Source: an uncultured Pseudoxanthomonas sp.
Lineage (GTDB): Bacteria; Pseudomonadota; Gammaproteobacteria; Xanthomonadales; Xanthomonadaceae
Assembly (NCBI GenBank): GCA_937975725.1
Contig: CALJUL010000105.1
Span: forward strand, 1-21,550
Direction of reading: 5' to 3'
Length of the DNA stretch: 21,550 bases
A program made the translations under genes and the position numbers. The notes beneath the pieces were generated by a model, which saw only the letters and a program-made list of their open reading frames with translations, searched no databases and had not been told where the DNA came from. Shown here piece after piece: positions 2 through 20,530 of this stretch; position 1 is the stretch's first letter, and each line of letters opens with the position of its first letter.

Positions 2-481
2 ACCGGCTTCATGGTCGGCCGCAAGTACGAGAACGCCGGCATCGCCAAGGACGGGGCGAAGATGGTCACCGCGGTGGCGTGTTCGTCCGTGCCGAAGTTC
101 ACGGTGGTCATCGGCGGCAGCTTCGGTGCCGGCAACTATGCCATGTGCGGCCGCGCCTACGGCGCGCGCTTCCTGTGGATGTGGCCGAACGCGCGCATCA
201 GCGTGATGGGAGGCGAACAGGCGGCCAGCGTGCTGGCCACGGTGAAGCGCGACGGCATCGAAGCCGCCGGCAAGGCGTGGACGCCGGAAGAGGAGGACGC
301 CTTCAAGGCGCCCATCCGCGAGCAGTACGAAACCCAGGGCAGCCCGTGGTACGCCACCGCGCGCCTGTGGGACGACGGCATCATCGACCCGGCCGACACC
401 CGCCGCGTGCTGGGGCTGGGCATCTCGGCCTCGCTCAACGCGCCGATCGAACCGGCGAAGTTCGGCGTGTTCCGGATGTAG
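2..481 (+). CDS. mccB: Methylcrotonoyl-CoA carboxylase beta (carboxyltransferase) subunit, C-terminal fragment; the 5' end lies outside the window
   Basis: The frame is open from the window edge. The translation ...[42 protein letters not shown]...[13 protein letters not shown] is typical of acyl-CoA carboxyltransferase subunits. The liuC, mccA and HMG-CoA lyase context supports the MCCase assignment. TAG stop at 479-481. Confidence 0.85.
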
Positions 482-491
482 GAGACAGTCC

Positions 492-1085
492 GTGCGACGC
501 CTTGCCCTGGCCCTGTGCTGCGCCCTGCTCGCCGTCGCGGGCGCCTGCCGGCAGGCCACTCCCGTCGCCACGGAGCAGGCGCCGGCGCCCGCCGCCGCGC
601 CCCTGATCGAACTGGCACGCGGCAGCGAATGGGACGGCTTCGACAGCGTGCACATCCCGCCGCAGGGCCCGGCCACGCTGTACCGCCTCGCCCACGAAGC
701 ACGGGACGACACGATCCGATTCCACCACGAGACCGCCACGCTGCCCCTGTCGCCTTCCACCCGGGCTGCCCTGCGTGCGGAGATCGAACGCCTGCAATTG
801 TTCGCGTTGAAGGACCACTACGGCGGCGACGTCGAAGACGGCACCCAGTGGCTGCTGCGCATCGTCGACGGCGACCGCACGTTGCGCGTGTACTGCGACA
901 ACGCATTCCCGCCGCCGCTGGAAGCCTTCGCCAAAGCCGTGGACGCCGGGCTCGAACACGACGGCCTGCAACGGATCGCATGGCGCCGCATGGACGAGCG
1001 CGAACCCCTGCCCCTGCAGGGCGCCCTGCGCCTGGCCGTGACGCCCATGGAGGCGTCGCCGGCCGCGACCGGCGCGGGCGGATAG
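492..1085 (+). CDS. Hypothetical secreted protein or lipoprotein
   Basis: GTG start 10 nt after the mccB stop. The N-terminus MRRLALALCCALLAVAGAC looks like a signal peptide with a lipobox-like AGAC. Composition is not that of an off-frame high-GC ORF (D/E/H/Y/W/F are present). No domain recognised. Confidence 0.55.
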   Translation: MRRLALALCCALLAVAGACRQATPVATEQAPAPAAAPLIELARGSEWDGFDSVHIPPQGPATLYRLAHEARDDTIRFHHETATLPLSPSTRAALRAEIERLQLFALKDHYGGDVEDGTQWLLRIVDGDRTLRVYCDNAFPPPLEAFAKAVDAGLEHDGLQRIAWRRMDEREPLPLQGALRLAVTPMEASPAATGAGG

Positions 1086-1299
1086 CGCCGGCCCCATCCG
1101 CAGTCTTCGCGCCGTTGCTCCCGGGCGGTCGAGAAGCAGCCCTCTTCAGCCATGTGAGCGCGGCGTGCACATGCCCGACTCCACGGTGAACCGCGGCCGC
1201 CTCCGACGGGCGGCGCGGCCAATTGGCCGTCCCGGTCACAGCGCGCGCAAAGCGCAGCGGCGATAGTCCCGGGCTCCTGCCGCCCGGAGCATCCCCTGC

Positions 1300-1833
1300 A
1301 TGTCCATCTGGAAAGACCAAGGCCCCGCGAAGAAAGACGCCGCCGTGCCGCCGCCGGAACCCACCCCGATCACCGCGCGGGACACGCCGGCGGCCGACTT
1401 CTCGCCCGCCGTCACCGCGCCGCCGGGCACCCGGCCGGCCGAGCGCCCGGCGCAGGAGGCGCTGAAGGAATCGCTGATCGCCGCCGACCTGACCATCGAA
1501 GGCAAGATCGAGGGCACCGGGCACATCCGCATCGCCGGCAAGTTCAAGGGCGACGTCAACGTGCAGGGCGACCTGACCATCGAAACCGGCGCCAAGCTCA
1601 ACGGCAGCGTGCGGGCGAAGAAGGTCATCATCGCCGGCGAACTGGAGGGCAACATCGAGTCCGCCTCGCGCGTGGAACTGCTGTCGTCCGGCGTGCTGAT
1701 CGGCGACGTCAAGGCCGGCGCGCTCACCGTCGCCGCCGGCTCGCGCATGCGCGGCCAGGCCGAATTCGGCTGGGACGAAGCCTCGGCCAAGGGCGGCAAG
1801 GCCAACGCCACGGAGCCCGGCGCGGCCGCATGA
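1300..1833 (+). CDS. Bactofilin (DUF583, polymer-forming cytoskeletal protein) with a Pro/Ala-rich N-terminal tail
   Basis: The core LTIEGKIEGTGHIRIAGKFKGDVNVQGDLTIETGAKLNGSVRAKKVIIAGELEGNIESASRVELLSSGVLIGDVKAGALTVAAGSRMRGQAEF shows the characteristic beta-helical bactofilin repeat pattern. GGAG lies 10 nt upstream of the ATG at 1300. Confidence 0.8.
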   Translation: MSIWKDQGPAKKDAAVPPPEPTPITARDTPAADFSPAVTAPPGTRPAERPAQEALKESLIAADLTIEGKIEGTGHIRIAGKFKGDVNVQGDLTIETGAKLNGSVRAKKVIIAGELEGNIESASRVELLSSGVLIGDVKAGALTVAAGSRMRGQAEFGWDEASAKGGKANATEPGAAA

Positions 1834-2192
1834 GCCAGCCGCGCCCCGGCAGCGCCGGCGCCACCCGCACCTGCCCGCACTGCAAGGCGACGATCCTGGA
1901 GAGTGCGGCGGTCTGTCCCGGCTGCCGCCATCACCTGCGCTTCGAGCCGGGCGCGGGCGCGGGCGCCATGTCTTCGCTCACGCCGCTGCGGATCGAAGGC
2001 ACCCTGCAACCGCCGGCGGAAGACGCCGCATGGGAGTACAGCGTGGTGCTGTCCATCCGCAACGACCGCGGCGAGGAAGTCACCCGCCAGGTGGTCGGCG
2101 TCGGCGCGATGCAACCGCACGAACGGCGCAGTTTCGTGCTTTCTGTCGAGCTCAATCCCGCCGCGGCCAAGGGCAAGCGCATGCGCCACTGA
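1830..2192 (+). CDS. Zinc-ribbon domain protein with an uncharacterised C-terminal domain
   Basis: CPHC-x12-CPGC near the N-terminus (TRTCPHCKATILESAAVCPGCRHH). The ATG at 1830 overlaps the bactofilin TGA (ATGA, 1830-1833). The C-terminal ~70 aa has normal composition (WEYSVVLSIRNDRGEEVTRQVVGVGAM). Confidence 0.6.
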   Translation: MSQPRPGSAGATRTCPHCKATILESAAVCPGCRHHLRFEPGAGAGAMSSLTPLRIEGTLQPPAEDAAWEYSVVLSIRNDRGEEVTRQVVGVGAMQPHERRSFVLSVELNPAAAKGKRMRH

Positions 2193-2258
2193 CCTCTTCC
2201 CGCCCCTCCCGGCGGCCGGATACACTCGATGCCGACAAGGATGCCAGCAGGGGGCAGG

Positions 2259-3956
2259 ATGATCGTCGGTATCGACTTGGGGACCACGCATTCGCTGATC
2301 GGCCTGCACGGAGACGCAGGCCCGCACCTGATACCCAACGCACTCGGGAAACTGCTGACGCCCTCGGCCGTCAGCGTCGACGAGGACGGCACGCTGCTGG
2401 TCGGCGATGCCGCGCTGGACAGGCTCATCACCCATCCGCAGTCCAGCGTCGCCAGCTTCAAGCGCTGGATGGGCTCGCGCCGCGAAACCCGGCTGGGCCA
2501 GCGCGCCTACTTGCCGGAGGAACTGTCGGCGCTGGTGATCCGCTCGCTGCTGGACGATGCGCAGGCCGCGCTCGGCAGCCGGCCGCGGGAAGCCGTCATC
2601 AGCGTGCCCGCCTATTTCAGCGACGCCCAGCGCCGGGCGACGCGGCGCGCCGGCGAACTGGCGGGACTGCGGGTGGAACGCCTGATCAACGAGCCCACGG
2701 CCGCGGCATTGGCCTACGGCCTGGCCGAGCGCCTGGACGAGGCGCACGTGCTGGTGCTCGACCTGGGCGGCGGCACCTTCGACGTCTCGATCCTGGAACT
2801 GTTCGACGGCGTCGTGAAGGTGCATGCCAGCGCCGGCGACAACTTCCTCGGCGGCGACGACTTCACCGAGGCGATCGAGAAGCACTGGCTGTCCGAACAC
2901 CACCTGCGCCGCGAAGCCCTCAAGCCGCAGGAAGCCAGCCAGCTCCGCCAGCGCGCCGAGGCGGCGAAGCGCCAACTGGCCACGAGCCAGTCCACCGAGC
3001 AGGCCCTGCACGTCGCCGGCAAGGCGTACGCCCTGCGGCTGGACGAGGCCGGCTTCGACCAACTGGTCGCCCCGCTCGTGCAGCGCATGCGCAGCCCGAT
3101 CGAACGCGCCATGCGCGATGCCGGCCTGCGCGGCGCCGACCTGGCCGAAGTGGTGATGGTGGGCGGCGCTTCGCGGATGCCGCAACTGTCCAGGCTGGCG
3201 GCGCGCCTGCTCGGCCGCCTGCCGCTGCGGCACGTGGCGCCGGACGAGGCCATCGCCCACGGCGCCTGCGTCGCCGCCGGGCTGAAGGCGCGCCACCAGG
3301 CGCTGGAGGAAATCATCCTCACCGACGTCTGCCCGCATTCGCTGGGCGTGGCGATCAGCATGGAACTGGGCCAGGGACTGCGGAGCCACGGCCACTTCGA
3401 CCCGATCATCGAGCGCAACAGCACGGTGCCCGTCAGCCGCATGCGCGAGTACTACCCGATCCACGACCAGCAGACCGCGATCACGCTGCGCGTCTACCAG
3501 GGCGAGAATCCCTGGGCCGAGAACAACATCGCGCTGGGTGCGCTGGAAGTGCCGGTGCCGCCCGGCGCGGCCGACGAGCGCGGGGTCGACGTGCGCTTCA
3601 CCTACGACATCAACGGCGTGCTGCAGGTCGAAGCGCGGGTCAAGAAGACCGGCATCGTGCGCGAACTGCTGCTGATGCAGGACGACGGCGGCCTGACCGA
3701 GGAAGAGGCCCGGCAGCGTCTGGCCGAACTGGCCGAGCTGAAGACCCATCCCCGCGACGAACAGCCCAACATCGCCGCCCTGGCGCGCGCCGAACGCCTG
3801 TATACGGAGTCGCTGGGCGAGGAGCGCCGGCAGGTCCACGCGCTGATCGTCGACTTCCAGGCCGTGCTGGCCACCCAGGACAAGACCCTGGTGGCACGCC
3901 AGCGCGCGGCCTTGCTGCAGGCGCTGGATACGCTGGAGGCCAGGGAACCGCTATGA
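2259..3956 (+). CDS. hscC: HscC-type (non-DnaK) Hsp70 family chaperone
   Basis: Hsp70 ATPase motifs are present: GIDLGTTHS, INEPTAAALAYG, DLGGGTFDVS, VGGASRMP. Several blocks match my recollection of E. coli HscC: HASAGDNFLGGDDFT, ILTDVCPHSLGV, PIIERNSTVPVSR, RVYQGEN, DVRFTYDINGVLQVE, LKTHPRD. I prefer the start at 2259 (MIVGIDLG) because AGGGGG lies just upstream. In-frame ATGs at 2229 and 2241 are alternatives. Confidence 0.85.
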   Translation: MIVGIDLGTTHSLIGLHGDAGPHLIPNALGKLLTPSAVSVDEDGTLLVGDAALDRLITHPQSSVASFKRWMGSRRETRLGQRAYLPEELSALVIRSLLDDAQAALGSRPREAVISVPAYFSDAQRRATRRAGELAGLRVERLINEPTAAALAYGLAERLDEAHVLVLDLGGGTFDVSILELFDGVVKVHASAGDNFLGGDDFTEAIEKHWLSEHHLRREALKPQEASQLRQRAEAAKRQLATSQSTEQALHVAGKAYALRLDEAGFDQLVAPLVQRMRSPIERAMRDAGLRGADLAEVVMVGGASRMPQLSRLAARLLGRLPLRHVAPDEAIAHGACVAAGLKARHQALEEIILTDVCPHSLGVAISMELGQGLRSHGHFDPIIERNSTVPVSRMREYYPIHDQQTAITLRVYQGENPWAENNIALGALEVPVPPGAADERGVDVRFTYDINGVLQVEARVKKTGIVRELLLMQDDGGLTEEEARQRLAELAELKTHPRDEQPNIAALARAERLYTESLGEERRQVHALIVDFQAVLATQDKTLVARQRAALLQALDTLEAREPL

Positions 3957-4798
3957 CGCTGAGCGCCTGGGAAGTCCTCGGCATCGAGGAAACCGCCGAC
4001 AGCCGGGCGATCCGCCGTGCCTATGCCGCCCGGCTCAAGGCCACGCGCCCGGAGGAGGACGCCACCGCGTTCCAGTTGCTGACGGATGCCTTCGAATGGG
4101 CCTGCGCCGATGCACGGCGACTGCAGAACGAACAGGCCGCCGCCGAACGCCCGTCGGCCGGTCCCCCATCCACGGAACCGGAGCCCTCCGTCCCGGCCCC
4201 GGACGCCCCGCTGCCGGAACTCGGGAAACCGCTGGACGCCGAACCCGCCCCGGCCGACGGCAGTGCGCCCGCGACCGCGGACGGAAGCGAAGGCGAGGAA
4301 CGCAGCTTCGCCTTCGGGCCTTTCTTCGAGGCGCTTGCCGAGGAGATCCGCAAGCGCGATCCCAAGCACCTGCGCGCGTGGCTGGATGCACATCCCGAGC
4401 TGTATTCGCTCGAACTCAAGTGGGCGCTGACGCCGCACGTGTTCGACACCCTCGCCCACAACGCGAGCGTCCTCGATCCGCACCGCGGGCATCTGGAAAC
4501 GCTGATGCACTTCTTCGGCGTGGACGCGCGCCTGCGGCGCCATCCGGCCTTGGCGCCGGCACTGGATTTCCTCGAACTCGGGCAATGGCGCGAACAGAAA
4601 CCGGCGGCTTCGTCGCAAAAGGCGCCCATGCCCGCAGGCTGGGAGAACCTGGCCAACGTCATGGACGAATCCAGGCAAGGCCCACCCCCGCCGCGCAAGC
4701 CGCTCCAGGGGACCTGGAGCGAGAACCTGGCGAACTACTGGTGGGTGTTCATCGTCCTGATGGTCATCGGCAAGTTGAGCGCCTTCTTCAGCCAATGA
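3953..4798 (+). CDS. J-domain-like, C-terminally membrane-anchored protein (DjlC/YbeV-like Hsp70 partner)
   Basis: The ATG at 3953 overlaps the hscC TGA (ATGA). The N-terminus WEVLGIEETADSRAIRRAYAARLKATRPEEDATAFQLLTDAFEWA follows the J-domain helix II-loop-helix III pattern. An acidic Pro/Ala linker and a globular region follow. The terminal hydrophobic helix YWWVFIVLMVIGKLSAFF forms a tail anchor. This is the last 281 codons of the spurious 922-aa ORF 2030..4798. Confidence 0.75.
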   Translation: MTLSAWEVLGIEETADSRAIRRAYAARLKATRPEEDATAFQLLTDAFEWACADARRLQNEQAAAERPSAGPPSTEPEPSVPAPDAPLPELGKPLDAEPAPADGSAPATADGSEGEERSFAFGPFFEALAEEIRKRDPKHLRAWLDAHPELYSLELKWALTPHVFDTLAHNASVLDPHRGHLETLMHFFGVDARLRRHPALAPALDFLELGQWREQKPAASSQKAPMPAGWENLANVMDESRQGPPPPRKPLQGTWSENLANYWWVFIVLMVIGKLSAFFSQ

Positions 4799-4837
4799 AC
4801 GCCGCCGCCGCAGGCGGCTGTCGACGGTAGGCCAAGA

Positions 4838-4857
4838 CGCGCTGACGCTTCAGCGCG
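4838..4857. terminator. Hairpin between convergent genes; possible bidirectional terminator
   Basis: CGCGCTGA-cgct-TCAGCGCG is a perfect 8-bp stem. It sits between the J-like gene stop (4798) and the stop of the minus-strand gene (4850-4852), which it overlaps. There is no clear U-tract. Confidence 0.3.
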
Positions 4858-5098
4858 CAGGGGGATCGCAGTTGTCGCAGCCGCCGCAGGCGCTGCCGCC
4901 CCCGCGTTGCGACGGCGGCGCGATCCAGCGCCCGAGCGCGCGCAGCCATGGCGGCCGGCCCTCGCGCAGCAACGGCAGCGCCAGCGCGACGCGGGCCTTG
5001 CGCAGCGGGCCGGGGAACTGCTTCTTCAGCACCACCCACGCGCTGACCGCCACCGCGACGGCGATGACGGCGTACTGCAGGGCGAGCGGCAGGTCCAT
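4850..5098 (-). CDS. Small FeoB-associated membrane protein with a C-terminal Cys-rich motif
   Basis: This is the last 82 codons of ORF 4850..5860. MDLPLALQYAVIAVAVAVSAWVVL is an N-terminal TM helix and the C-terminus carries ...GGGSACGGCDNCD. The ATG lies 2 nt downstream of the feoB stop, with GGAG ~10 nt upstream. It resembles the small Cys-rich proteins found after feoB. Confidence 0.55.
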   Translation of the reverse strand: MDLPLALQYAVIAVAVAVSAWVVLKKQFPGPLRKARVALALPLLREGRPPWLRALGRWIAPPSQRGGGSACGGCDNCDPPAR

Positions 5099-5100
5099 GC

Positions 5101-6963
5101 TCAGCCCGCTCCCAGCGCGCGGGCGACCTGGTAGGTGACCAGCGAGGCGGCGTAGGCCAGCGCGAACAGGTACAGCGTGGCGTAGCCCATCTGCTTCCAC
5201 GAATTGGTCTCGCGCTTGATCGTGGCCAGCGTGGAGATGCACATCGGCGCGTAGATGTACCAGACCAGCAGCGACAGCGCGGTGGCCAGCGACCAGCCGT
5301 CGCTGATCAGCGGGGTCAGCGCCTGCGCGGCCGCGTCGTCGTCGGCCGCCGACAGTGCATAGACCGTCGCCAGCGAGGACACCGCCACTTCGCGCGCGGC
5401 CATGCCCGGGATCAGTGCGATGCAGATCTGCCAGTTGAAGCCCAGCGGCGCGAAGAACACCGCCATCGCGTGGCCGATGCGGCCGGCGAAGCTGTAGTCG
5501 ATCGCCGGACCCACCGCGTCCGCCGGCGCGGCCGGGAACGACAGCAGCACCCACAGCAGGACGGTCAGCGCCAGGATGATGCCGCCGACGCGCTTGAGGA
5601 AGATCATCGCGCGTTCCCACAGGCCGATCAGCAGGTCGCGCGGATGCGGGATGCGGTACGACGGCAGTTCCAGCAGCAGCGGGTGCTCGCTCTTGTCGCG
5701 GCGCCACTTCTTCATCACCCACGACACCAGCAGCGCGCTGAGGATGCCGGCCGCGTACAGGCCGAACAGCACCAGGCCCTGCTGGTTGAACACACCGATC
5801 TGCTTCTGCGGCACGAAGGCGCCGATCAGCAGTGCGTACACCGGCAGGCGCGCCGAGCACGTCATCAGCGGCGCGACCAGGATCGTCGCCAGGCGGTCGC
5901 GCGGGTCCTGGATGCTGCGCGTGGCCATGATGCCGGGGATGGCGCAGGCGAAGCTGGACAGCAGCGGGATGAACGAACGGCCCGACAGCCCTGCCGAGGC
6001 CATCATGCGGTCCAGCAGGAACGCCGCGCGCGGCAGGTAGCCGCTCTCCTCCAGCGCCAGGATGAAGGCGAACAGGATCAGGATCTGCGGCAGGAACACG
6101 ATGACGCCGCCGACGCCGGCGATGATGCCGTCCACCAGCAGGCTGTTAAGCGGGCCTTCCGGCAGCGCGCCGCCGACCCATTCGCCCACCGCGCCGGTGC
6201 CGGCCTCGATCAGGTCCATCAGCGGCGTGGCCCAGGCGTACACCGCCTGGAAGATCAGGAACATCACGACGATCAGCGCCACCAGGCCGAACACCGGGTG
6301 CAGCAGCCAGCGGTCCAGCGCGTCGTCGACCTTCGCGGTGCGCGTGGGCATGGCCACCGCCAGCGCCAGCAGCCGGCGCGTCTCGGCGTGCAGGTCGGCG
6401 CCTTCGGCGAGCCGCGCGCGGGGCTCGTGCGGCTGCGCGGCCATCGCGTCGATCGTCTCGACCAGCGCGCGCGCGCCGCCGTGGCGGACGGCGACGGTCT
6501 CCACTACCGGCACGCCCAGTTCGCGCTCCAGCGCCGCCAGGTCGATGGCGATGCCGCGGCGCTGCGCGGCGTCCATCATGTTGACCGCCAGGATCATCGG
6601 CTTGCCGAGTTCGCGCACTTCCAGCGCGAAGCGCAGGTGCAGGCGCAGGTTGGTCGCGTCGACCACGCAGACCAGCACGTCCGGCGCGGTTTCGCCGGGA
6701 TAGAAGCCGCGGCACACGTCACGCGTCACCGCCTCGTCCAGGCTGGCGGCGTGCAGGCTGTAGGCGCCCGGCAGGTCCAGCACCGCGTAGCTGCGCCCGG
6801 ACGCGACCGAATGCAGCCGGCCTTCCTTGCGCTCCACGGTGACGCCGGCGTAGTTGGCGACCTTCTGCCGGCTACCGGTCAACTGGTTGAACAGCGCCGT
6901 CTTGCCGCAGTTCGGGTTGCCGACCAGGGCCAGGCGCAGCGTCGACGCATCGGCCGCGCTCAT
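5101..6963 (-). CDS. feoB: Ferrous iron transporter FeoB
   Basis: N-terminal G-domain LALVGNPNCGKTALFNQLTG...VANYAGVTVERKEG, followed by a long polytopic membrane domain. 620 aa. The start overlaps the feoA stop (6960-6963). Confidence 0.95.
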   Translation of the reverse strand: MSAADASTLRLALVGNPNCGKTALFNQLTGSRQKVANYAGVTVERKEGRLHSVASGRSYAVLDLPGAYSLHAASLDEAVTRDVCRGFYPGETAPDVLVCVVDATNLRLHLRFALEVRELGKPMILAVNMMDAAQRRGIAIDLAALERELGVPVVETVAVRHGGARALVETIDAMAAQPHEPRARLAEGADLHAETRRLLALAVAMPTRTAKVDDALDRWLLHPVFGLVALIVVMFLIFQAVYAWATPLMDLIEAGTGAVGEWVGGALPEGPLNSLLVDGIIAGVGGVIVFLPQILILFAFILALEESGYLPRAAFLLDRMMASAGLSGRSFIPLLSSFACAIPGIMATRSIQDPRDRLATILVAPLMTCSARLPVYALLIGAFVPQKQIGVFNQQGLVLFGLYAAGILSALLVSWVMKKWRRDKSEHPLLLELPSYRIPHPRDLLIGLWERAMIFLKRVGGIILALTVLLWVLLSFPAAPADAVGPAIDYSFAGRIGHAMAVFFAPLGFNWQICIALIPGMAAREVAVSSLATVYALSAADDDAAAQALTPLISDGWSLATALSLLVWYIYAPMCISTLATIKRETNSWKQMGYATLYLFALAYAASLVTYQVARALGAG

Positions 6964-7205
6964 GCCGCGGCCCCGTTGCGCAGGCGGATGCGGGCCGCTT
7001 CCGAGCGGCGCAGCGCGAAACGGGTGAAGCCCACCTGCACCAGCAGCGGCTCGGCGCCCAGCGGGCCCTTGGCCACGATCTCGACCTCTTCGCCGTTGAC
7101 GAAGCCCAGCTCGCGCAGGCGGCGGGCAATGCTGTCCTGGGGGCCACGGTCTTCGACGGAGTCAACGATGGCCGGGGTGCGCCAGGGCAATTCGATCAGG
7201 GTCAC
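6960..7205 (-). CDS. feoA: Ferrous iron transport protein FeoA
   Basis: 81 aa. ...IVDSVEDRGPQDSIARRLRELGFVNGEEVEIVAKGPLGAEPLLVQVGFTRFALRRSEAARI matches the FeoA SH3-like pattern. GTG start at 7205. Translationally coupled to feoB. Confidence 0.9.
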   Translation of the reverse strand: MTLIELPWRTPAIVDSVEDRGPQDSIARRLRELGFVNGEEVEIVAKGPLGAEPLLVQVGFTRFALRRSEAARIRLRNGAAA

Positions 7206-7216
7206 GCGCGGATCTC

Positions 7217-7241
7217 AAATGCGAACTATTCTCATAATAGC
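7217..7241 (-). promoter_or_regulatory. AT-rich, Fur-box-like dyad upstream of feoA
   Basis: This is the only AT-rich patch in the 108-bp feoA/liuC divergent region. The minus strand reads TATTATGAGAATAGTTCGC, which matches 12 of 19 positions of GATAATGATAATCATTATC by my hand alignment. It contains the dyad CTATT-n5-AATAG. feo operons are commonly Fur-regulated. Confidence 0.3.
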
Positions 7242-7313
7242 ATCGCCGCAGCGCAGGAAGGCGGCGCCGGGCCGTGCCGCTATCATTCGGCCACCTTGCA
7301 CGGAGTGGCTGGA

Positions 7314-8117
7314 ATGACGGAATCGTCCCGGAACGGGCCCCTCGCGGTGCTGCGGCAGGGCGCGGTGGCCCGCCTGCGGCTGGAGCGCCCGGCGCTGCAC
7401 AACGCCTTCGACGCCGGCCTGATCGCCGCGCTGACCGCGACGCTGGAAGGGCTCGCCGCCGACCCGTCGGTGCGCGTGGTGGTGCTGGAAGGCAGCGGCG
7501 CCTCGTTCTCGGCCGGCGCCGACCTGCACTGGATGCGCGGCATGGCCGCGGCCGGCGAGGCCGAGAACCGGGCCGACGCCCTGGCCCTGGCCCGGCTGAT
7601 GCGCACCCTGGACGAACTGCCCAGGCCCACCGTGGCCCGCGTGCACGGCGCGGCCTTCGGCGGCGGCGTGGGGCTGGTGGCCTGCTGCGACATCGCCATC
7701 GGCACGCCGGAGGCGAAATTCGGCCTGACCGAAAGCAAGCTGGGCCTGCTGCCCGCGGTGATTTCGCCCTATGTCGTCGCCGCCATCGGCGCCCGCCAGG
7801 CGCGGCGCTACTTCGCCACCGCGGAGATCTTCGACGCCCCCGAGGCGCAGCGGATCGGGCTGTTGCACCAGGTCGTGCCGGCCGACGCCCTGGACGCCGC
7901 CGTGGACCGGCAGATCGCTCTGCTGCTCAAGGCCGGTCCCCTCGCCTGCGCCGGCGCCAAGCGGCTGGTGCGCGACGTCGCCAGGCACGGCGACCGCGAC
8001 GCGCTGGACCGGGCCAACGCCGAGCTGATCGCACGCCTGCGCATTTCCCCGGAAGGCCAGGAAGGCCTGACGGCCTTTCTCGACAAGCGCGCGCCCGCCT
8101 GGGCGGCGAAGGAGTGA
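7314..8117 (+). CDS. liuC: Enoyl-CoA hydratase family protein, probably methylglutaconyl-CoA hydratase
   Basis: Crotonase-fold signature: VVVLEGSGASFSAGADLHWM ... ARVHGAAFGGGVGLVACCDIAIG. It sits among the mccB, mccA and HMG-CoA lyase genes. The ATG at 7314 has GGAG 9 nt upstream. An in-frame TTG at 7296 is the alternative start. Confidence 0.8.
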   Translation: MTESSRNGPLAVLRQGAVARLRLERPALHNAFDAGLIAALTATLEGLAADPSVRVVVLEGSGASFSAGADLHWMRGMAAAGEAENRADALALARLMRTLDELPRPTVARVHGAAFGGGVGLVACCDIAIGTPEAKFGLTESKLGLLPAVISPYVVAAIGARQARRYFATAEIFDAPEAQRIGLLHQVVPADALDAAVDRQIALLLKAGPLACAGAKRLVRDVARHGDRDALDRANAELIARLRISPEGQEGLTAFLDKRAPAWAAKE

Positions 8118-8121
8118 ACCC

Positions 8122-8514
8122 ATGATCGACCATCTCGGCATCCAGGTCGCCGACTACCCGCGCAGCCGCGCCTTCTACGAGACCGTGCTCGCCACGCTGG
8201 GCTACGGCGTGGCGATGGAAGTGACCCGAGCCATGAGCGGCGGCTACGAAGGCTGCGGCTTCGGCCCGCCGGGGCGCCCGCACTTCTGGGTGGGCGCCTG
8301 CGGCAACGGCGCCGCCAGCGGCAGCGTGCACATCGCCTTCGCGGCGCAGACCCGCGCCCAGGTGGACGCCTTCCACGCCGCCGCCCTGGCCGCCGGCGCG
8401 CGCGACAACGGCGCCCCCGGCCTGCGCCCGCACTACCACCCCCACTACTACGGCGCCTTCGCCATCGACCCGGACGGCCACAACATCGAGGCGGTGTGCC
8501 ACGCTGCCGGATAA
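8122..8514 (+). CDS. VOC (glyoxalase/bleomycin-resistance/dioxygenase) family protein
   Basis: MIDHLGIQVADYPRSRAFYETVLATLGY ... HIAFAA ... HPHYYGAFAIDPDGHNIEAV is the typical VOC pattern. AAGGAG lies 7 nt upstream. The start is 4 nt after the liuC stop. Confidence 0.8.
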   Translation: MIDHLGIQVADYPRSRAFYETVLATLGYGVAMEVTRAMSGGYEGCGFGPPGRPHFWVGACGNGAASGSVHIAFAAQTRAQVDAFHAAALAAGARDNGAPGLRPHYHPHYYGAFAIDPDGHNIEAVCHAAG

Positions 8515-8515
8515 A

Positions 8516-8961
8516 GGATTTCGCCACGGATTTCACGGATGAACGCGGATAAGGCTTTACTGCACAAGGAACTGACCGATCATGTCCTGGGAGCGTTCTA
8601 CGATGTCTACAACGCTCTCGGACATGGTTTCCTGGAAAGCGTCTACGAGAATGCGCTGGCGATGATCCTGGAAGAAAACGGCATATCGGTGACGAAGCAG
8701 CACCCGATCGACATCGTCTTCAAAGGGCGTTGCATCGGTCAATTCCGCGCCGACCTGCTGGTGGAGCATTCGTTGATCGTCGAAATCAAGGCACAAGCGA
8801 ACCTGATGCCCGTCCATGAAGCGCAATTGCTGAACTACCTCAAGGCCACCGGCCTTTCCGTCGGGCTGCTGCTGAACTTCGGTCCCCGCCCGCAGTTCAA
8901 GCGCCGCATCTTCACCTCCCGCCCCATCCGCGTCGATCCGCGCAAATCCGTGGCCGAATCC
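8516..8961. mobile_element. Inverted-repeat-bounded, low-G+C unit carrying the GxxExxY gene (putative selfish or MITE-like insertion)
   Basis: Left end 8516-8550 is GGATTTCGCCACGGATTTCACGGATGAACGCGGAT. The reverse complement of the right end 8926-8961 is GGATTCGGCCACGGATTTGCGCGGATCGACGCGGAT. About 30 of 36 aligned positions match. Each end carries three CRCGGAT heptads. The unit fills the whole VOC-mccA intergenic gap. Confidence 0.4.
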
Positions 8962-8962
8962 C

Positions 8963-8970
<8 letters not shown>
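8539..8970 (+). CDS. GxxExxY protein (PD-(D/E)XK nuclease superfamily)
   Basis: Eponymous motif GFLESVY within [16 protein letters not shown]-(D/E)XK-like core is present in [16 protein letters not shown]. 143 aa. G+C is clearly lower than in the neighbours. The last 8 nt overlap the mccA start. Confidence 0.85.
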
Positions 8971-10944
<1,974 letters not shown>

Positions 10945-16564: not shown

Positions 16565-19164
16565 ACGGCGGCGACGCACGCGAAACGGACACCGCACCCG
16601 CCGGCGCCCCGCCGGAGCAGGCCATCGACGTGGCCGCGCTCGCCGCCGCCCTGCAACGCGCCGCCGACGACCCGGCCACCGCCGAGGCGCAGCGCGCCCT
16701 GCTGCTGCAGGCCCGCACCGCCCTGATCGCCAAGCAGCGCGAAGCCGCCACCGAGCGCTCGCGCTACCGCAACCTGTTCGACGCCGTGCCCGATCCGGTC
16801 AGCATCATCGCCGAGGACGGCACCGTGCTGGACCTCAACAAGGCCGGCATGCTGGCGTACCGCCGCGCCCGCGACGAGATCGTCGGCAACAACATCAACG
16901 TGCTCAACCCGGACCTGCCGCGCGACCACCTGGTGCCGGTGTGGGAAACGCTGAACCGCGGCGAGACCTACGTCATCGAGGTCACCAACATGCGCGGCGA
17001 CGGCACCCGCTTCCCGGTGGAGGTGCACTCGGCCAACATCAACTTCGACGGCCACAAGAGCATCGTGGCGGTGGCGCGCGACATCAGCAGCCGGCGCTTG
17101 GCCGAGCTGCGCTACCGCGAGCTGATGGAGACCATCGACAAGGGCATCGTGGTGCACAACCGCGACCTGGCCGTGCAGTATTGCAACGGCGCGGCCATGC
17201 GCATCTTCGGCATCCGCGAGGACCAGCGCGTGGACCAGGAACTGGCGCCGGAGCGCTGGCACATGGTCGACGAGCACGGCCGCGAGATGCAGCGCCACGA
17301 ACTGCCCTCGCAGCGCGCCCTGGACCAGGGCCAGATGGTGGAAAGCGTGCTGCTGGGCATGTACCACCGCGAGCGCAAGCAACTGATCTGGCTGACCGCC
17401 ACCTCGGTGCCGCAGTTCGCCCCGGGCGAGAGCGCGCCCTCGCAGGTCACCACCCTCTTCAGCGACGTCACCGAGCTCAAGCGCGACAGCGCCCTGTTCG
17501 ACCGTGCGCAGTCGCTGGCGCACATCGGCGGCTGGGAATGGGACATCGGCCGCGACCGCATGTACCTGACCGACGAGGCGCAGCGCATCCTCGGCGCCGC
17601 GCGGCCGCTGGTGACGCTGGAGGACGTGCTGGCCTGCCTGCGCGAGCCCGACCGCCGCCGCCTGCGCGGCGCGCTGGACCTGGTCACCGCCGGCGGCAAG
17701 GGCTTCGACCTGGAACTGCAGGGCACCCAGGCCGACGGCCACCCGTTCTGGATCCGCGTGATCGGCGACGCCGAGCCCGGCGACCCCGGCGCCTCGCACA
17801 TCAGCGGCACCATGCAGGACATCTCGCAGGACAAGCAGGCCGAAGAGATGCTGCGCATCCAGGCGCGCACCGACCCGCTTACCGGGCTGATGAACCGCGA
17901 CGCGGTGCTGACCGAGCTGGGCGCGCGCCTGGCCGATCCCGAGCGCTCGCGGGTGGCAGTGCTGTACATCGACCTGGACCGCTTCAAGATGGTCAACGAC
18001 GTGCTGGGCCACAACGCCGGCGACGAACTGCTGGTGCAGTCCTCCGACCGCATCCGCGGCGCGGTCGGCACCGAGGGCATGATCGCCCGCTTCGGCGGCG
18101 ACGAGTTCCTGGTGATCTGCGACGCCGGCGAGGACCCGCGCCTGCCGGAGAAGCTGGCGCACGCGGTGCTGGGCGCGTTCGCCGACGCCTTCCGCTTCGG
18201 CAAGGACGAGTTCGCCATCACCGCCAGCATCGGCCTGGCGGTGGCGCCCGGCGACGGCCTGCGTCCGCAGCAGCTCATCCAGAACGCCGACATCGCGATG
18301 TACGACAGCAAGCACCGCGCGCGCAACGGCTGGCAGAGCTTCACCCAGGAACTGGCGCAGCGGCAGCAGGACCGCCTGCAGATCGAGACCCAGTTGCGCC
18401 GCGCCGTGGACAACGACGAGTTCCGGCTGGTCTACCAGCCGCAGGTGGACCTGCGCAACGGCCGCATCGTCGCCGGCGAGGCGCTGATCCGCTGGCAGAA
18501 CCACCAGTTGGGCGAACTGCGTCCGGACGTGTTCATCAGCCACGCCGAGACCACCGGCGACATCGTGCGCATCGGCAGTTGGGTGCTGCGCGAAGCCTGC
18601 CGCCAGATCGCCGCCTGGCGCGACCAGGGGCTGGGCATCGTGCGGGTGGCAGTCAACGTGTCCTACCGCCAGTTCGCCGGCGACAACCTGACCGACCGGC
18701 TGCGCGCGATCCTGCATGAGTTCGACCTGCCTGGCGCGGCGCTGGAACTGGAATTCACCGAGCGCGTGCTGATCGAGGACGCACCGGCCACGCTGCGCAC
18801 CTTCGCCGACCTGCGCCAGTTGGGCGTGATGCTGACCATCGACGACTTCGGCGAAGGCTACAGCGCGCTCAACTACCTGCGCCGCCTGCCCATCCACGGA
18901 CTCAAGCTCAGCCCGCTGTTCACCGAGGGCGTGCCCAGCAACCGCTCCGACGTGGCGGTCTGCCAGGCCGTCTCCGCCATCGCCCGCAGCCTGGGCCTGG
19001 GCCTGGTGGCCGAAGGCGTGGAATCCGAGGCGCAGCGCCAGTTCCTGCTGCAACTGGGCGTGCCGGTGGGCCAGGGTTTCCTGTTCGCCCCCGGCCTGTC
19101 TCCCGACGAGTTCGCCCGCCGCCTGGCCGAAACCCCGCTGGAGCAGCGCCTCTCCCACGCCTGA
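16561..19164 (+). CDS. Cytoplasmic multi-PAS GGDEF-EAL protein (c-di-GMP cyclase/phosphodiesterase)
   Basis: The ATG at 16561 overlaps the lyase TGA (ATGA). PAS-like modules are visible (YRNLFDAVPDPVSIIAEDG..., ETIDKGIVVHNRDL..., GGWEWDIGRDRMYLTDEA...). The GGDEF motif is intact (ARFGGDEFLV). EAL-domain motifs are present: EALIRW, DDFGEGYSAL, VAEGVESEAQ, GQGFLFAP. No TM segment seen. Confidence 0.9.
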   Translation: MNGGDARETDTAPAGAPPEQAIDVAALAAALQRAADDPATAEAQRALLLQARTALIAKQREAATERSRYRNLFDAVPDPVSIIAEDGTVLDLNKAGMLAYRRARDEIVGNNINVLNPDLPRDHLVPVWETLNRGETYVIEVTNMRGDGTRFPVEVHSANINFDGHKSIVAVARDISSRRLAELRYRELMETIDKGIVVHNRDLAVQYCNGAAMRIFGIREDQRVDQELAPERWHMVDEHGREMQRHELPSQRALDQGQMVESVLLGMYHRERKQLIWLTATSVPQFAPGESAPSQVTTLFSDVTELKRDSALFDRAQSLAHIGGWEWDIGRDRMYLTDEAQRILGAARPLVTLEDVLACLREPDRRRLRGALDLVTAGGKGFDLELQGTQADGHPFWIRVIGDAEPGDPGASHISGTMQDISQDKQAEEMLRIQARTDPLTGLMNRDAVLTELGARLADPERSRVAVLYIDLDRFKMVNDVLGHNAGDELLVQSSDRIRGAVGTEGMIARFGGDEFLVICDAGEDPRLPEKLAHAVLGAFADAFRFGKDEFAITASIGLAVAPGDGLRPQQLIQNADIAMYDSKHRARNGWQSFTQELAQRQQDRLQIETQLRRAVDNDEFRLVYQPQVDLRNGRIVAGEALIRWQNHQLGELRPDVFISHAETTGDIVRIGSWVLREACRQIAAWRDQGLGIVRVAVNVSYRQFAGDNLTDRLRAILHEFDLPGAALELEFTERVLIEDAPATLRTFADLRQLGVMLTIDDFGEGYSALNYLRRLPIHGLKLSPLFTEGVPSNRSDVAVCQAVSAIARSLGLGLVAEGVESEAQRQFLLQLGVPVGQGFLFAPGLSPDEFARRLAETPLEQRLSHA

Positions 19165-19277
19165 GGCAGGAGCGACCGTCTCCTCCTTCGCCCGTTGCCG
19201 ACCGATAGCCGTACCTCTATGCTGCCCACCAGTAGCAGGTGGGGTACCCGCTACACATCACACCACAGGGGAAAACG

Positions 19278-19889
19278 ATGTCTCCATTGTTTCGCGGCCT
19301 GCGTTCCGCTGGCTTGGCGGTTATCGCGTGCCTGACGCTGTCCGGATGCCTGTCGATGAAGTTCTACGTCGACCCTGCCTTGCCCACGATCGCCAAGAGT
19401 GAACTCGTGCCGCCGTCCCCGCAGCATCCTGCCCACGTGCTGTTCGAGTTCCGCAGCAAGGGCAGCGCCAACACCACCGCCACCAGCCAGCTACGCGGTC
19501 AGGTCGTCGCCGCGGTAGCCGAATCCGGCCTGTTCTCCAGCATTTCGCCCGCCGCTGGCGACACGGACGCGGGCCAATTGAAGATCGTGATCGACAATGT
19601 GCCCCTCACGGAGAATGCAGCCGCCAAAGGTTTCGGTACCGGCCTGACATTTGGCTTGGCTGGTTCGCAGGTGACCGATGGGTATACCTGCGTGGTCAGC
19701 TACACGCGTGGCGACAAGACCACCACCGCTACCGTGAAGCATGCATTGCATTCCACCATCGGCAACCACTCCGGCCCTGCCGGCCTCACCGCGATGCCTG
19801 CGCAGGACGCAATCAACCAGGTTATGCAGCAGATGGTCTGGAATGCGCTCAAGGAACTCAACGACAAGCAGGCATTCGCTTCGGAGTAA
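19278..19889 (+). CDS. Hypothetical lipoprotein
   Basis: MSPLFRGLRSAGLAVIACLTLSGC is a signal peptide with a good lipobox (LSGC). AGGGGA lies upstream of the ATG at 19278. G+C and third-position bias are lower than in the flanks. No family recognised with confidence. Confidence 0.65.
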   Translation: MSPLFRGLRSAGLAVIACLTLSGCLSMKFYVDPALPTIAKSELVPPSPQHPAHVLFEFRSKGSANTTATSQLRGQVVAAVAESGLFSSISPAAGDTDAGQLKIVIDNVPLTENAAAKGFGTGLTFGLAGSQVTDGYTCVVSYTRGDKTTTATVKHALHSTIGNHSGPAGLTAMPAQDAINQVMQQMVWNALKELNDKQAFASE

Positions 19890-19893
19890 CCGT

Positions 19894-20463
19894 ATGCGCA
19901 TCCGTTTTCCAATCGCCTACGCCGTGCTGGCCAGCCTTACGCTGGCCGGCTGCGTCTCGGCACCTGCGCCGAAATACCAACCCAGCGTGGACAACAGCGC
20001 CCTGGTACTCAAGCATCGGCCGATCGTCGACGTCGGTCCATTCACCGCCGCGGCAGGGGTGCAGAACCGGGCGCTCAGCATGCGCGGCTCGAAACTCCAG
20101 GGTGGCGCCGACGGCACGTATTCCACCTATCTGCGAGATGCGCTCATCACCGAACTGCAGGTAGCCGGTGGTTATGTGCCCGGCAGCAATCTGCGCATCG
20201 AGGGCGAGCTGACCCATAACCGACTCGATGTCTCGGGCATCAAGGTCGGCAAAGCTGAGGTAGGTGCACGCTTCATCGTGCGTCGGGGCGACCATGTGGT
20301 CTACGACCGCACCTTGCAAATCGAGCACACGTGGGAATCCTCGTTCATTGGCGCCTTGGCCATCCAGGCCGGCATCGATAATTACGGAACCACCGTACAG
20401 AAGCTGATCGGCACCCTGCTGGCCGACCCCGAGTTCATCTCGGCGATCCAGCCAGTTAGCTGA
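19894..20463 (+). CDS. Hypothetical lipoprotein (possibly YajG-like; weak impression only)
   Basis: MRIRFPIAYAVLASLTLAGC is a signal peptide with a lipobox (LAGC). The start is 4 nt after the preceding lipoprotein gene's stop. The layout LRIEGELTHNRLDVSG...ARFIVRR...ESSFIGA...VQKLIGTLLADPEF loosely recalls E. coli YajG. Lower G+C. Confidence 0.65.
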   Translation: MRIRFPIAYAVLASLTLAGCVSAPAPKYQPSVDNSALVLKHRPIVDVGPFTAAAGVQNRALSMRGSKLQGGADGTYSTYLRDALITELQVAGGYVPGSNLRIEGELTHNRLDVSGIKVGKAEVGARFIVRRGDHVVYDRTLQIEHTWESSFIGALAIQAGIDNYGTTVQKLIGTLLADPEFISAIQPVS

Positions 20464-20469
20464 AACGGG

Positions 20470-20491
20470 GGTGGTCCTGCAAAGGACCACC
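20470..20491 (+). terminator. Perfect hairpin after the lipoprotein pair
   Basis: GGTGGTCC-tgcaaa-GGACCACC is an 8-bp perfect stem starting 7 nt after the stop at 20463. There is no U-tract, so the terminator function is uncertain. A TAGAAT (-10-like) hexamer follows at 20508-20513. Confidence 0.3.
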
Positions 20492-20530
20492 GCTCCCCGG
20501 CCTCCGCTAGAATGACGGTCACCCTCATTC

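Follow-up and report, generated by a model that had tools for sequence, protein, structure and literature searches.

Escherichia coli HscC (YbeW), an Hsp70, reportedly works with the membrane-anchored co-chaperones DjlC and DjlB, a partnership said to have been described by Kluck et al. in 2002. HscC proteins are 550–580 amino acids (aa) long with a short C-terminal tail, and are defined by a deletion in lobe I of the nucleotide-binding domain (NBD; DnaK residues 76–101), absence of the GrpE-signature loop, a short deletion close to D211 of DnaK, and an insertion of 4–8 residues in loop L1,2 of the substrate-binding domain β (SBD-beta); their sporadic distribution has been attributed to horizontal gene transfer (HGT) (Mayer 2021; PMC8215388). 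Canonical bactofilins such as BacA of Caulobacter crescentus carry an N-terminal membrane-targeting sequence (PMC12448750), and the known bactofilin clients and partners include PbpC, the M23 peptidase LmdC (PMC10945521), and Csd5/7, which go with CcmA in Helicobacter pylori (PMC9507126). Within the library of papers searched, nothing linked a bactofilin with a zinc-ribbon protein or with an Hsp70. Genes for these proteins are packed together on one strand of a 21,550-nucleotide (nt) stretch of DNA from an uncultured Pseudoxanthomonas sp. (contig CALJUL010000105.1 of assembly GCA_937975725.1), hereafter the window, in the order bactofilin, zinc-ribbon (Zn-ribbon) protein, HscC-type Hsp70, and J-like co-chaperone. 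A preliminary description had put the four genes forward as a candidate for a single module not described before. The present analysis indicates that the cassette probably consists of two autonomous, internally translation-coupled pairs lying side by side rather than one four-gene system, adjacency from ancestral synteny with differential loss being the simplest explanation. The four plus-strand open reading frames (ORFs), the start/stop overlaps of sequence ATGA that join the bactofilin gene to the Zn-ribbon gene (1830–1833) and hscC to the J-like gene (3953–3956), and the 66-nt gap were all confirmed, as follows.

1300..1833, + strand: bactofilin, 177 aa (PF04519)
1830..2192, + strand: Zn-ribbon protein, 120 aa, with a CPHC-x10-CPGC ribbon
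2193..2258, + strand: 66-nt spacer between the Zn-ribbon stop and the Hsp70 start at 2259
2259..3956, + strand: HscC-type Hsp70 (hscC), 565 aa (PF00012, E = 7e-122)
3953..4798, + strand: tail-anchored J-like co-chaperone, 281 aa, coupled to hscC by the ATGA overlap

The two pairs were followed in two scans, one for HscC (one genome per species; 80 HscC-type loci) and one for the Zn-ribbon protein, the best 80 loci being taken in each. The bactofilin and Zn-ribbon genes were found within 8 kb of hscC in only 5 of the 80 HscC loci, all from Lysobacterales and all in the order hscC-J(-J)-bactofilin-Zn-ribbon, the reverse of that in the window. Outside the Lysobacterales, none of about 59 HscC loci had a bactofilin gene within 8 kb, with tblastn relaxed to E = 5. 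Seen from the Zn-ribbon loci, the two pairs were adjacent in about 6 of 80; among informative loci, 3 of 37 had hscC downstream of the Zn-ribbon gene and 2 of 22 had it upstream. The recurrence in distant taxa that a general module would imply was thus absent. The preliminary description had itself named lineage-restricted co-occurrence and independent variation of the pairs as observations that would tell against a single module; both were observed, and the module idea therefore fails the test set there.

The independent variation is seen most clearly in the chromosomal interval that holds the cassette, between liuB on the left and the DUF6587-feoB-feoA-liuC genes on the right. The anchors and the one further gene of the interval in the window are as follows, those of the right anchor having been assigned with Pfam.

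11..481, + strand: 3′ end of liuB (methylcrotonyl-CoA carboxylase [MCCase] beta subunit), left anchor
492..1085, + strand: putative lipoprotein, 197 aa, with a weak DUF6438 match; strain-specific cargo of the slot
4850–5098, − strand: DUF6587 protein, right anchor
5101–6963, − strand: feoB, right anchor
6960–7205, − strand: feoA, right anchor
7296–8117, + strand: liuC, enoyl-CoA hydratase, right anchor

Homologues of liuB (86–97% identity) flank the interval across the Lysobacterales, the full gene giving a PF01039 match in loci L002 and L007, and the order DUF6587-feoB-feoA-liuC is kept in loci of Pseudoxanthomonas, Silanimonas, Lysobacter, and Dyella. The interval behaves as a variable slot within this conserved synteny block. 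The order bactofilin-Zn-ribbon-hscC-J occurs in the window lineage and in L100–102, and the order hscC-J(-J)-bactofilin-Zn-ribbon in L019, L021, L024, and L122, while in X. translucens two unrelated genes separate the pairs. Without hscC, the arrangement liuB-bactofilin-Zn-ribbon-DUF6587-feoB is present in P. wuyuanensis (L016) and in L098, L099, L103, L109, and L139, the Zn-ribbon proteins of L098 and L099 being 90–91% identical to that of the window. Conversely, liuB-hscC-J-DUF6587-feoB without the bactofilin is present in Silanimonas (L018 and L023) and Dyella (L025 and L090). Each pair is also found alone elsewhere, hscC-J at other chromosomal sites in S. nitritireducens, Stenotrophomonas, L010, L011, and L181, and bactofilin-Zn-ribbon in X. 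theicola, Rhodanobacter, and most metagenome loci. Among 21 Lysobacterales hscC loci, liuB was immediately upstream in 10 and the bactofilin and Zn-ribbon genes were nearby in 5; liuB is thus a commoner neighbour of hscC than the other pair is, which makes the interval, not the bactofilin, the common factor. Because feoAB itself lies inside a leucine-catabolic cluster, a conserved neighbourhood here is no proof of shared function.

Considering these distributions, we propose that both pairs reside in one variable slot of the Lysobacterales block liuB … DUF6587-feoB-feoA-liuC, in which each pair has undergone loss and reordering, and has been joined by further cargo, independently of the other. 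The HscC tree, together with the shared interval pattern, is in keeping with pairs that settled there long ago and were later lost, moved elsewhere, or rearranged locally. The main value of the analysis is negative, in that an apparent four-gene system turns out to be two ordinary, operon-like pairs that are separable, and it does not merit an entry as a new module. Two by-products are worth keeping, namely the obligate pairing of the bactofilin with the Zn-ribbon protein and the predominance of an RP[D/E] triad in HscC-linked J-like domains.

Several observations weigh against two separable pairs and speak for a facultative partnership in the Lysobacterales, in which the J-like protein would recruit HscC to a bactofilin/Zn-ribbon scaffold that is remodelled by HscC or serves as its platform, with selection keeping the pairs adjacent. 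At least three configurations place the pairs side by side on the same strand, in Pseudoxanthomonas, Lysobacter, Xanthomonas translucens, and metagenome-assembled genomes (MAGs), and the HscC proteins involved fall into two lineages with no more than 57–60% identity to each other; within Pseudoxanthomonas, both the order of the four genes and the 66-nt spacer remain stable although the J-like variants are only 60–65% identical. This adjacency is far above random placement in a 4-Mb genome and could reflect selection for proximity. Read-through co-transcription is possible, since no terminator was detectable in the spacer, and the bactofilin (through its putatively membrane-targeting N-terminal tail) and the J-like protein (through a transmembrane [TM] helix at residues 255–280) are both predicted at the inner membrane. 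However, close relatives hold either pair without the other in this very slot, each pair also occurs singly at other sites, the HscC/J-like pair is widespread without a linked bactofilin, and the link of hscC to liuB is the more frequent one. The co-localised cases are moreover not independent events, because every one of them is located in a single ancestral synteny block or descends from it. We therefore consider a facultative partnership unlikely. It is likewise quite unlikely that HscC and the J-like protein are a dedicated remodeller or client-loader of the bactofilin/Zn-ribbon scaffold in Lysobacterales whose adjacency is selected for co-expression, though remodelling of the scaffold by HscC would, if true, provide the first defined HscC substrate and the first chaperone-based bactofilin regulator.

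Chance may instead have brought the pairs together, if hscC-J were a recently transferred cassette that landed beside the bactofilin and Zn-ribbon genes in the window lineage. The presence or absence of hscC-J among close relatives (L098 and L099 versus Root630) and the sporadic, HGT-attributed distribution of HscC (PMC8215388) would fit such a transfer, but the G+C content of the cassette (0.70–0.735) is like that of the remaining window (about 70% overall), and the ORF list has no integrase, transposase, or repeat signatures. In addition, the HscC tree roughly tracks Lysobacterales taxonomy, with the window hscC not outside the Lysobacterales, and the liuB-feoB interval is the site of hscC in Silanimonas, Dyella, Rhodanobacter, and Lysobacter as well, which points to an old residence. 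A recent transfer is thus very unlikely, in agreement with the preliminary description, which had read the cassette as an interruption of the liu cluster, here placed between liuB and feoBA/liuC, with host-like G+C and no sign of recent acquisition. The same description had also raised a conflict-type system. Hsp70-containing conflict systems with GTPases and tubulin have been proposed (PMC7159879), and a polymerising scaffold with a chaperone could act as sensor and effector of anti-phage defence or form a stress island; a zeta-toxin-like gene in the interval of some relatives and the sporadic occurrence of HscC (PMC8215388) may be read in this way. A PADLOC-DB 2.0 scan of five proteins (the lipoprotein and the four cassette products), however, gave no match at E ≤ 0.1, and genes for an effector, a GTPase, a tubulin, a nuclease, or a mobile element are all missing from the cassette. 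Its G+C content is host-like, and the bactofilin and Zn-ribbon proteins are conserved lineage-wide (57–91% identical) rather than diversifying as defence genes do. An Aravind-lab-type Hsp70 conflict system was rejected, the GTPase and tubulin partners that it requires being absent from the cassette, and a defence or stress function of any such kind is extremely unlikely.

The junctions between the genes agree with two autonomous pairs, with overlaps of 4 nt inside the pairs and distances of 65–150 nt between them. In the spacer of the window, a −10-like box, TACACT, lies at 2221–2226, 32 nt upstream of the hscC start, and is conserved in a group of loci termed type B; a Shine–Dalgarno-like AGGGGG (about 2247–2252) precedes the start. 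In four loci of this type, which includes the cultured strain Pseudoxanthomonas sp. Root630 (GCA_001427585.1), the 3′ half of the spacer hardly varies, and TAGACT stands equally far ahead of the hscC start in S. nitritireducens L004 and L011, which have no bactofilin and Zn-ribbon genes there. These features hint that the TACACT box is a candidate −10 element of a promoter belonging to hscC-J itself. At 70% G+C, a scan of 400–5200 for consensus promoters and terminators yielded nothing of use.

The Hsp70 shares 44% identity with E. coli HscC along its full length (558 residues, E = 2e-151) and 36% with DnaK, and falls short of the NCBIfam equivalog cut-offs for both DnaK (408 versus 648 bits) and HscA (391 versus 708 bits). 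Its 565 aa, counted from the start at 2259, are the length called in all close homologues; an alternative start at 2229 was rejected on the basis of these lengths and of the conserved Shine–Dalgarno sequence. The protein fits the HscC length range, and its C-terminus stops where that of E. coli HscC stops. The alignment with DnaK shows a 24-column gap opposite DnaK residues of about 78–101, a 4-residue gap after IEIDEVDG of DnaK, another gap opposite residues of about 285–292, and a 9-residue insertion, SMELGQGLRSHG, against ET-MGG of DnaK, compared with the published 4–8 residues. In the neighbour-joining (NJ) tree, it falls in a Lysobacterales HscC clade. Judged by its sequence, the Hsp70 is thus a member of the HscC clade and not a DnaK, as the preliminary description had held, and the absence of grpE and dnaJ neighbours noted there was borne out. 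Full-length identity, HscC-specific indels, an adjacently encoded J-type partner, and the lack of nearby grpE and dnaJ are all shared with E. coli HscC; by contrast, the DUF1266 and Sel1 genes that neighbour E. coli hscC are absent from the window cassette. A tblastn search for the E. coli neighbours among the 80 HscC loci found YbeU in none, YbeR in 1, and YbeT in 4.

The 80 HscC loci came from Lysobacterales, Pseudomonas, Burkholderiales, Alphaproteobacteria, Clostridia, and Myxococcota. An ORF for a J-like protein, starting within −60 to +250 nt of the hscC end, was present in 68 of them, in Gamma-, Beta-, and Alphaproteobacteria as well as Clostridia, and HscC with its J-like partner is accordingly a widespread, tightly coupled two-gene unit. 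The window hscC-J is an ordinary member of this family of pairs, with an unusually short partner. In the NJ tree, which is a rough one, the two divergent Lysobacterales lineages differ in this respect. The short J partner is that of clade I, which includes the window and further Pseudoxanthomonas together with Silanimonas and S. nitritireducens, whereas clade II, which roughly tracks taxonomy, has J partners of about 500 aa, often in two or three copies. Tandem paralogous genes for J-like proteins of about 500 aa were observed in L024 (5065–9357), L019 (2537–4849), and the Stenotrophomonas loci L027, L030, and L032. The clade II tandems parallel the djlB/djlC duplication of E. coli, while the window lineage has a single 281-aa partner.

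The J-like protein is composed of a J-domain (residues 1–65), a disordered linker (66–120), a conserved helical domain (121–215), and a TM helix (255–280), the last predicted with pLDDT above 90. Against PF00226 it scores 17.9 bits, under the cut-off of 27.8, as does E. coli DjlC with 19.3 bits. Its N-terminus is 42% identical to the DjlC J-domain (residues 3–47), and hhalign of the J-like family against DjlC gave a probability of 96% for the J-domain only. The AlphaFold model (pLDDT 79) matched J-domains in Foldseek with probability 1.0 and an rmsd of 1.4 Å to 5nro_B, while its helical middle domain, although predicted well, had no PDB match. The middle domain (about 120–190) is, however, shared at 30–36% identity with the J partners, about 500 aa long, that accompany HscC in Lysobacterales and Pseudomonas. 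At the C-terminus, the hydrophobic sequence YWWVFIVLMVIGKLSAFFSQ can be aligned with the end of DjlC. The N-terminal J-domain, the single C-terminal TM helix, and the G-K-[LI]-x-x-x-F-S tail are thus common to the window protein and DjlC/DjlB. The two differ in size (281 aa versus 475–483 aa), the middle part of DjlC, about 400 aa, not being shared, and in gene arrangement, the J-like gene being directly downstream of and translationally coupled to hscC in the window, whereas E. coli djlC is convergent with hscC.

At the position of the HPD triad, the J-like protein has RPE (R32-P33-E34; window 4046–4054), and R32, P33, and D36 are invariant in 19 close homologues. The preliminary description was therefore right about a tail-anchored DjlC relative, on the evidence of the J-domain alignment, the model, and the fold match, and is corrected as to the triad, which is neither HPD nor HPE. 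Among the 68 genes adjacent to hscC, the triad was RPD in 35, RPE in 10, DQE in 10 (Massilia/Duganella-type genomes), and HPE in 1, so that RP[D/E] accounts for 45 of the 68. With HPE in a single HscC-linked partner, E. coli DjlB and DjlC, which carry HPE between helices II and III (PMC10410713), appear atypical among HscC partners; the HP[D/E] that marks these two is RPE in the window. A large J-domain survey removed non-HPD sequences (PMC10410713), and the RP[D/E] and DQE variants may be undescribed. A literature search for HscC with RPD found nothing.

J-like proteins of the Tim16/Pam16 type also lack the HPD histidine. The J-like proteins linked to HscC resemble them in keeping the J-domain fold with the canonical His replaced, but differ in keeping the Pro and the acidic residue. 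Since the RP[D/E] replacement is invariant within the family and is the majority state, it may point to an interface that has co-evolved and is active, not to a J-like domain without activity. In the 5NRO complex, R167 of DnaK presumably contacts the Asp of HPD, and its equivalent is conserved in all five aligned Hsp70s. By analogy with HscC–DjlC of E. coli, the J-domain, held at the inner face of the cytoplasmic membrane, would dock on the NBD of HscC and trigger ATP hydrolysis, the Asp or Glu of RP[D/E] pairing with the conserved equivalent of DnaK R167. HscC may thereby be loaded onto membrane-proximal clients without a need for GrpE. That RP[D/E] predominates is relevant to the activation of HscC and to its insulation from the co-chaperones of DnaK.

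In the other pair, the bactofilin matches PF04519 over profile positions 1–97 of 98 (E = 3e-24; 85.6 bits, cut-off 27.9), with a disordered N-terminal tail starting MSIWKDQGPAKKD and a beta-helical core at residues 58–154. The N-terminus MSIWKDQGPAKKD seems to resemble the membrane-targeting consensus MFSKKKK (PMC12448750). The full PF04519 core, the short hydrophobic and lysine-containing N-terminal tail (MSIWK…KK), and a dedicated partner gene are likenesses to canonical bactofilins. The 4-nt overlap with the Zn-ribbon gene also occurs in Xanthomonas, Rhodanobacter, and P. wuyuanensis genomes. In 65 of 65 loci, namely those of the 80 metagenomic Zn-ribbon loci with at least 600 nt of upstream sequence, the bactofilin gene was directly upstream of the Zn-ribbon gene. 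The two thus form an obligate pair, so far mainly in Lysobacterales, and the Zn-ribbon protein is a candidate for an undescribed obligate bactofilin partner.

The Zn-ribbon protein has an N-terminal CPHC-x10-CPGC, a variable linker, a four-strand beta domain (about 50–108), and a basic C-terminal tail. The cysteines of CPHC…CPxC, W68-E69-Y70, and G90-V91-G92 are invariant across 34 homologues. Only sub-threshold matches to Zn-ribbon profiles were obtained, and the AlphaFold model (pLDDT 77) shows the ribbon followed by the four-strand beta domain. Foldseek of this model against the PDB gave no fold match, only weak matches to Ig-like and GH2 domains at E ≥ 0.3, and an FxLYD match at the C-terminus (E = 0.078) was judged not significant. 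A word-index search returned 2640 homologues, the best 120 of which are all at least 60% identical and include named members from Pseudoxanthomonas, Xanthomonas, Rhodanobacter, and Arenimonas. The family is narrow, because an exhaustive HMM search yielded only 347 representatives of 50%-identity clusters. The basic C-terminal tail (…R-x-R-H) is conserved in the family, and divergent members have long Pro/Ala/Ser-rich tails; longer members of 200–266 aa were rejected as informative fusions, as nothing but such tails is added. The known partners LmdC and PbpC differ from the window partner, which is cytoplasmic and has no TM segment, peptidase domain, or peptidoglycan (PG)-synthase domain. We suggest that the bactofilin may polymerise and associate with the membrane through its N-terminal tail, and that the Zn-ribbon protein, which translational coupling would keep in a fixed ratio to the bactofilin, could serve as its dedicated adaptor or regulator. 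For the bactofilin field, this adds a candidate obligate partner of 120 aa with a Zn-ribbon and a beta domain and no known fold relative.

Besides the two pairs, the interval carries other cargo, including the lipoprotein gene of the window, an SDR gene, a zeta-toxin/KfrB-like ATPase gene, FTR1-type iron permease genes (identified from N-terminal sequences alone), and, in Xanthomonas, a CHASE3-GGDEF gene. Loci L019, L024, L090, L102, L136, and L031 showed cargo in the intervals equivalent to 482–1299 of the window. The lipoprotein gene, which had been thought possibly to belong to the cassette, is absent from Root630, L179, and L182 and had zero tblastn matches across 160 related loci (80 HscC and 80 Zn-ribbon loci), and its membership was rejected on both counts.

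The DUF6587 protein of the right anchor has 82 aa with a hydrophobic N-terminal segment and the Cys-rich C-terminal motif CGGCDNC. Its gene directly adjoins feoB in nearly all related loci that carry feoB, with the exception of Dyella L090, and the protein could be an accessory of the Feo system similar to FeoC.

The sequence of the window is identical to contig DDSQ01000075.1 of the bioreactor-sludge MAG GCA_002343845.1. In L003 (JGI contig Ga0069787_10164544), the same cassette lies at 4733–10613 with proteins that are 100% identical, and downstream of feoB a fatty-acid desaturase, an acetyltransferase, and DUF2145 stand in place of feoA-liuC, which suggests a strain-level rearrangement or a chimeric assembly. 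Farther along the liu cluster of the window, a PDDEXK_3-family gene (8539–8970, + strand) lies between the glyoxalase and MCCase alpha-subunit genes, in a region where G+C dips to 0.65 (8001–9500); it is missing at the equivalent position of Root630 (L007) and present in L179. In the gene calls of the MAG, the MCCase alpha subunit is split into products of 400 aa and 173 aa, compared with 663 aa in Root630, which could be due to a frameshift or an assembly error. At 19001–20500 of the window, the G+C content is 0.62–0.64 versus about 0.70 elsewhere, and this stretch could be foreign or otherwise atypical DNA.

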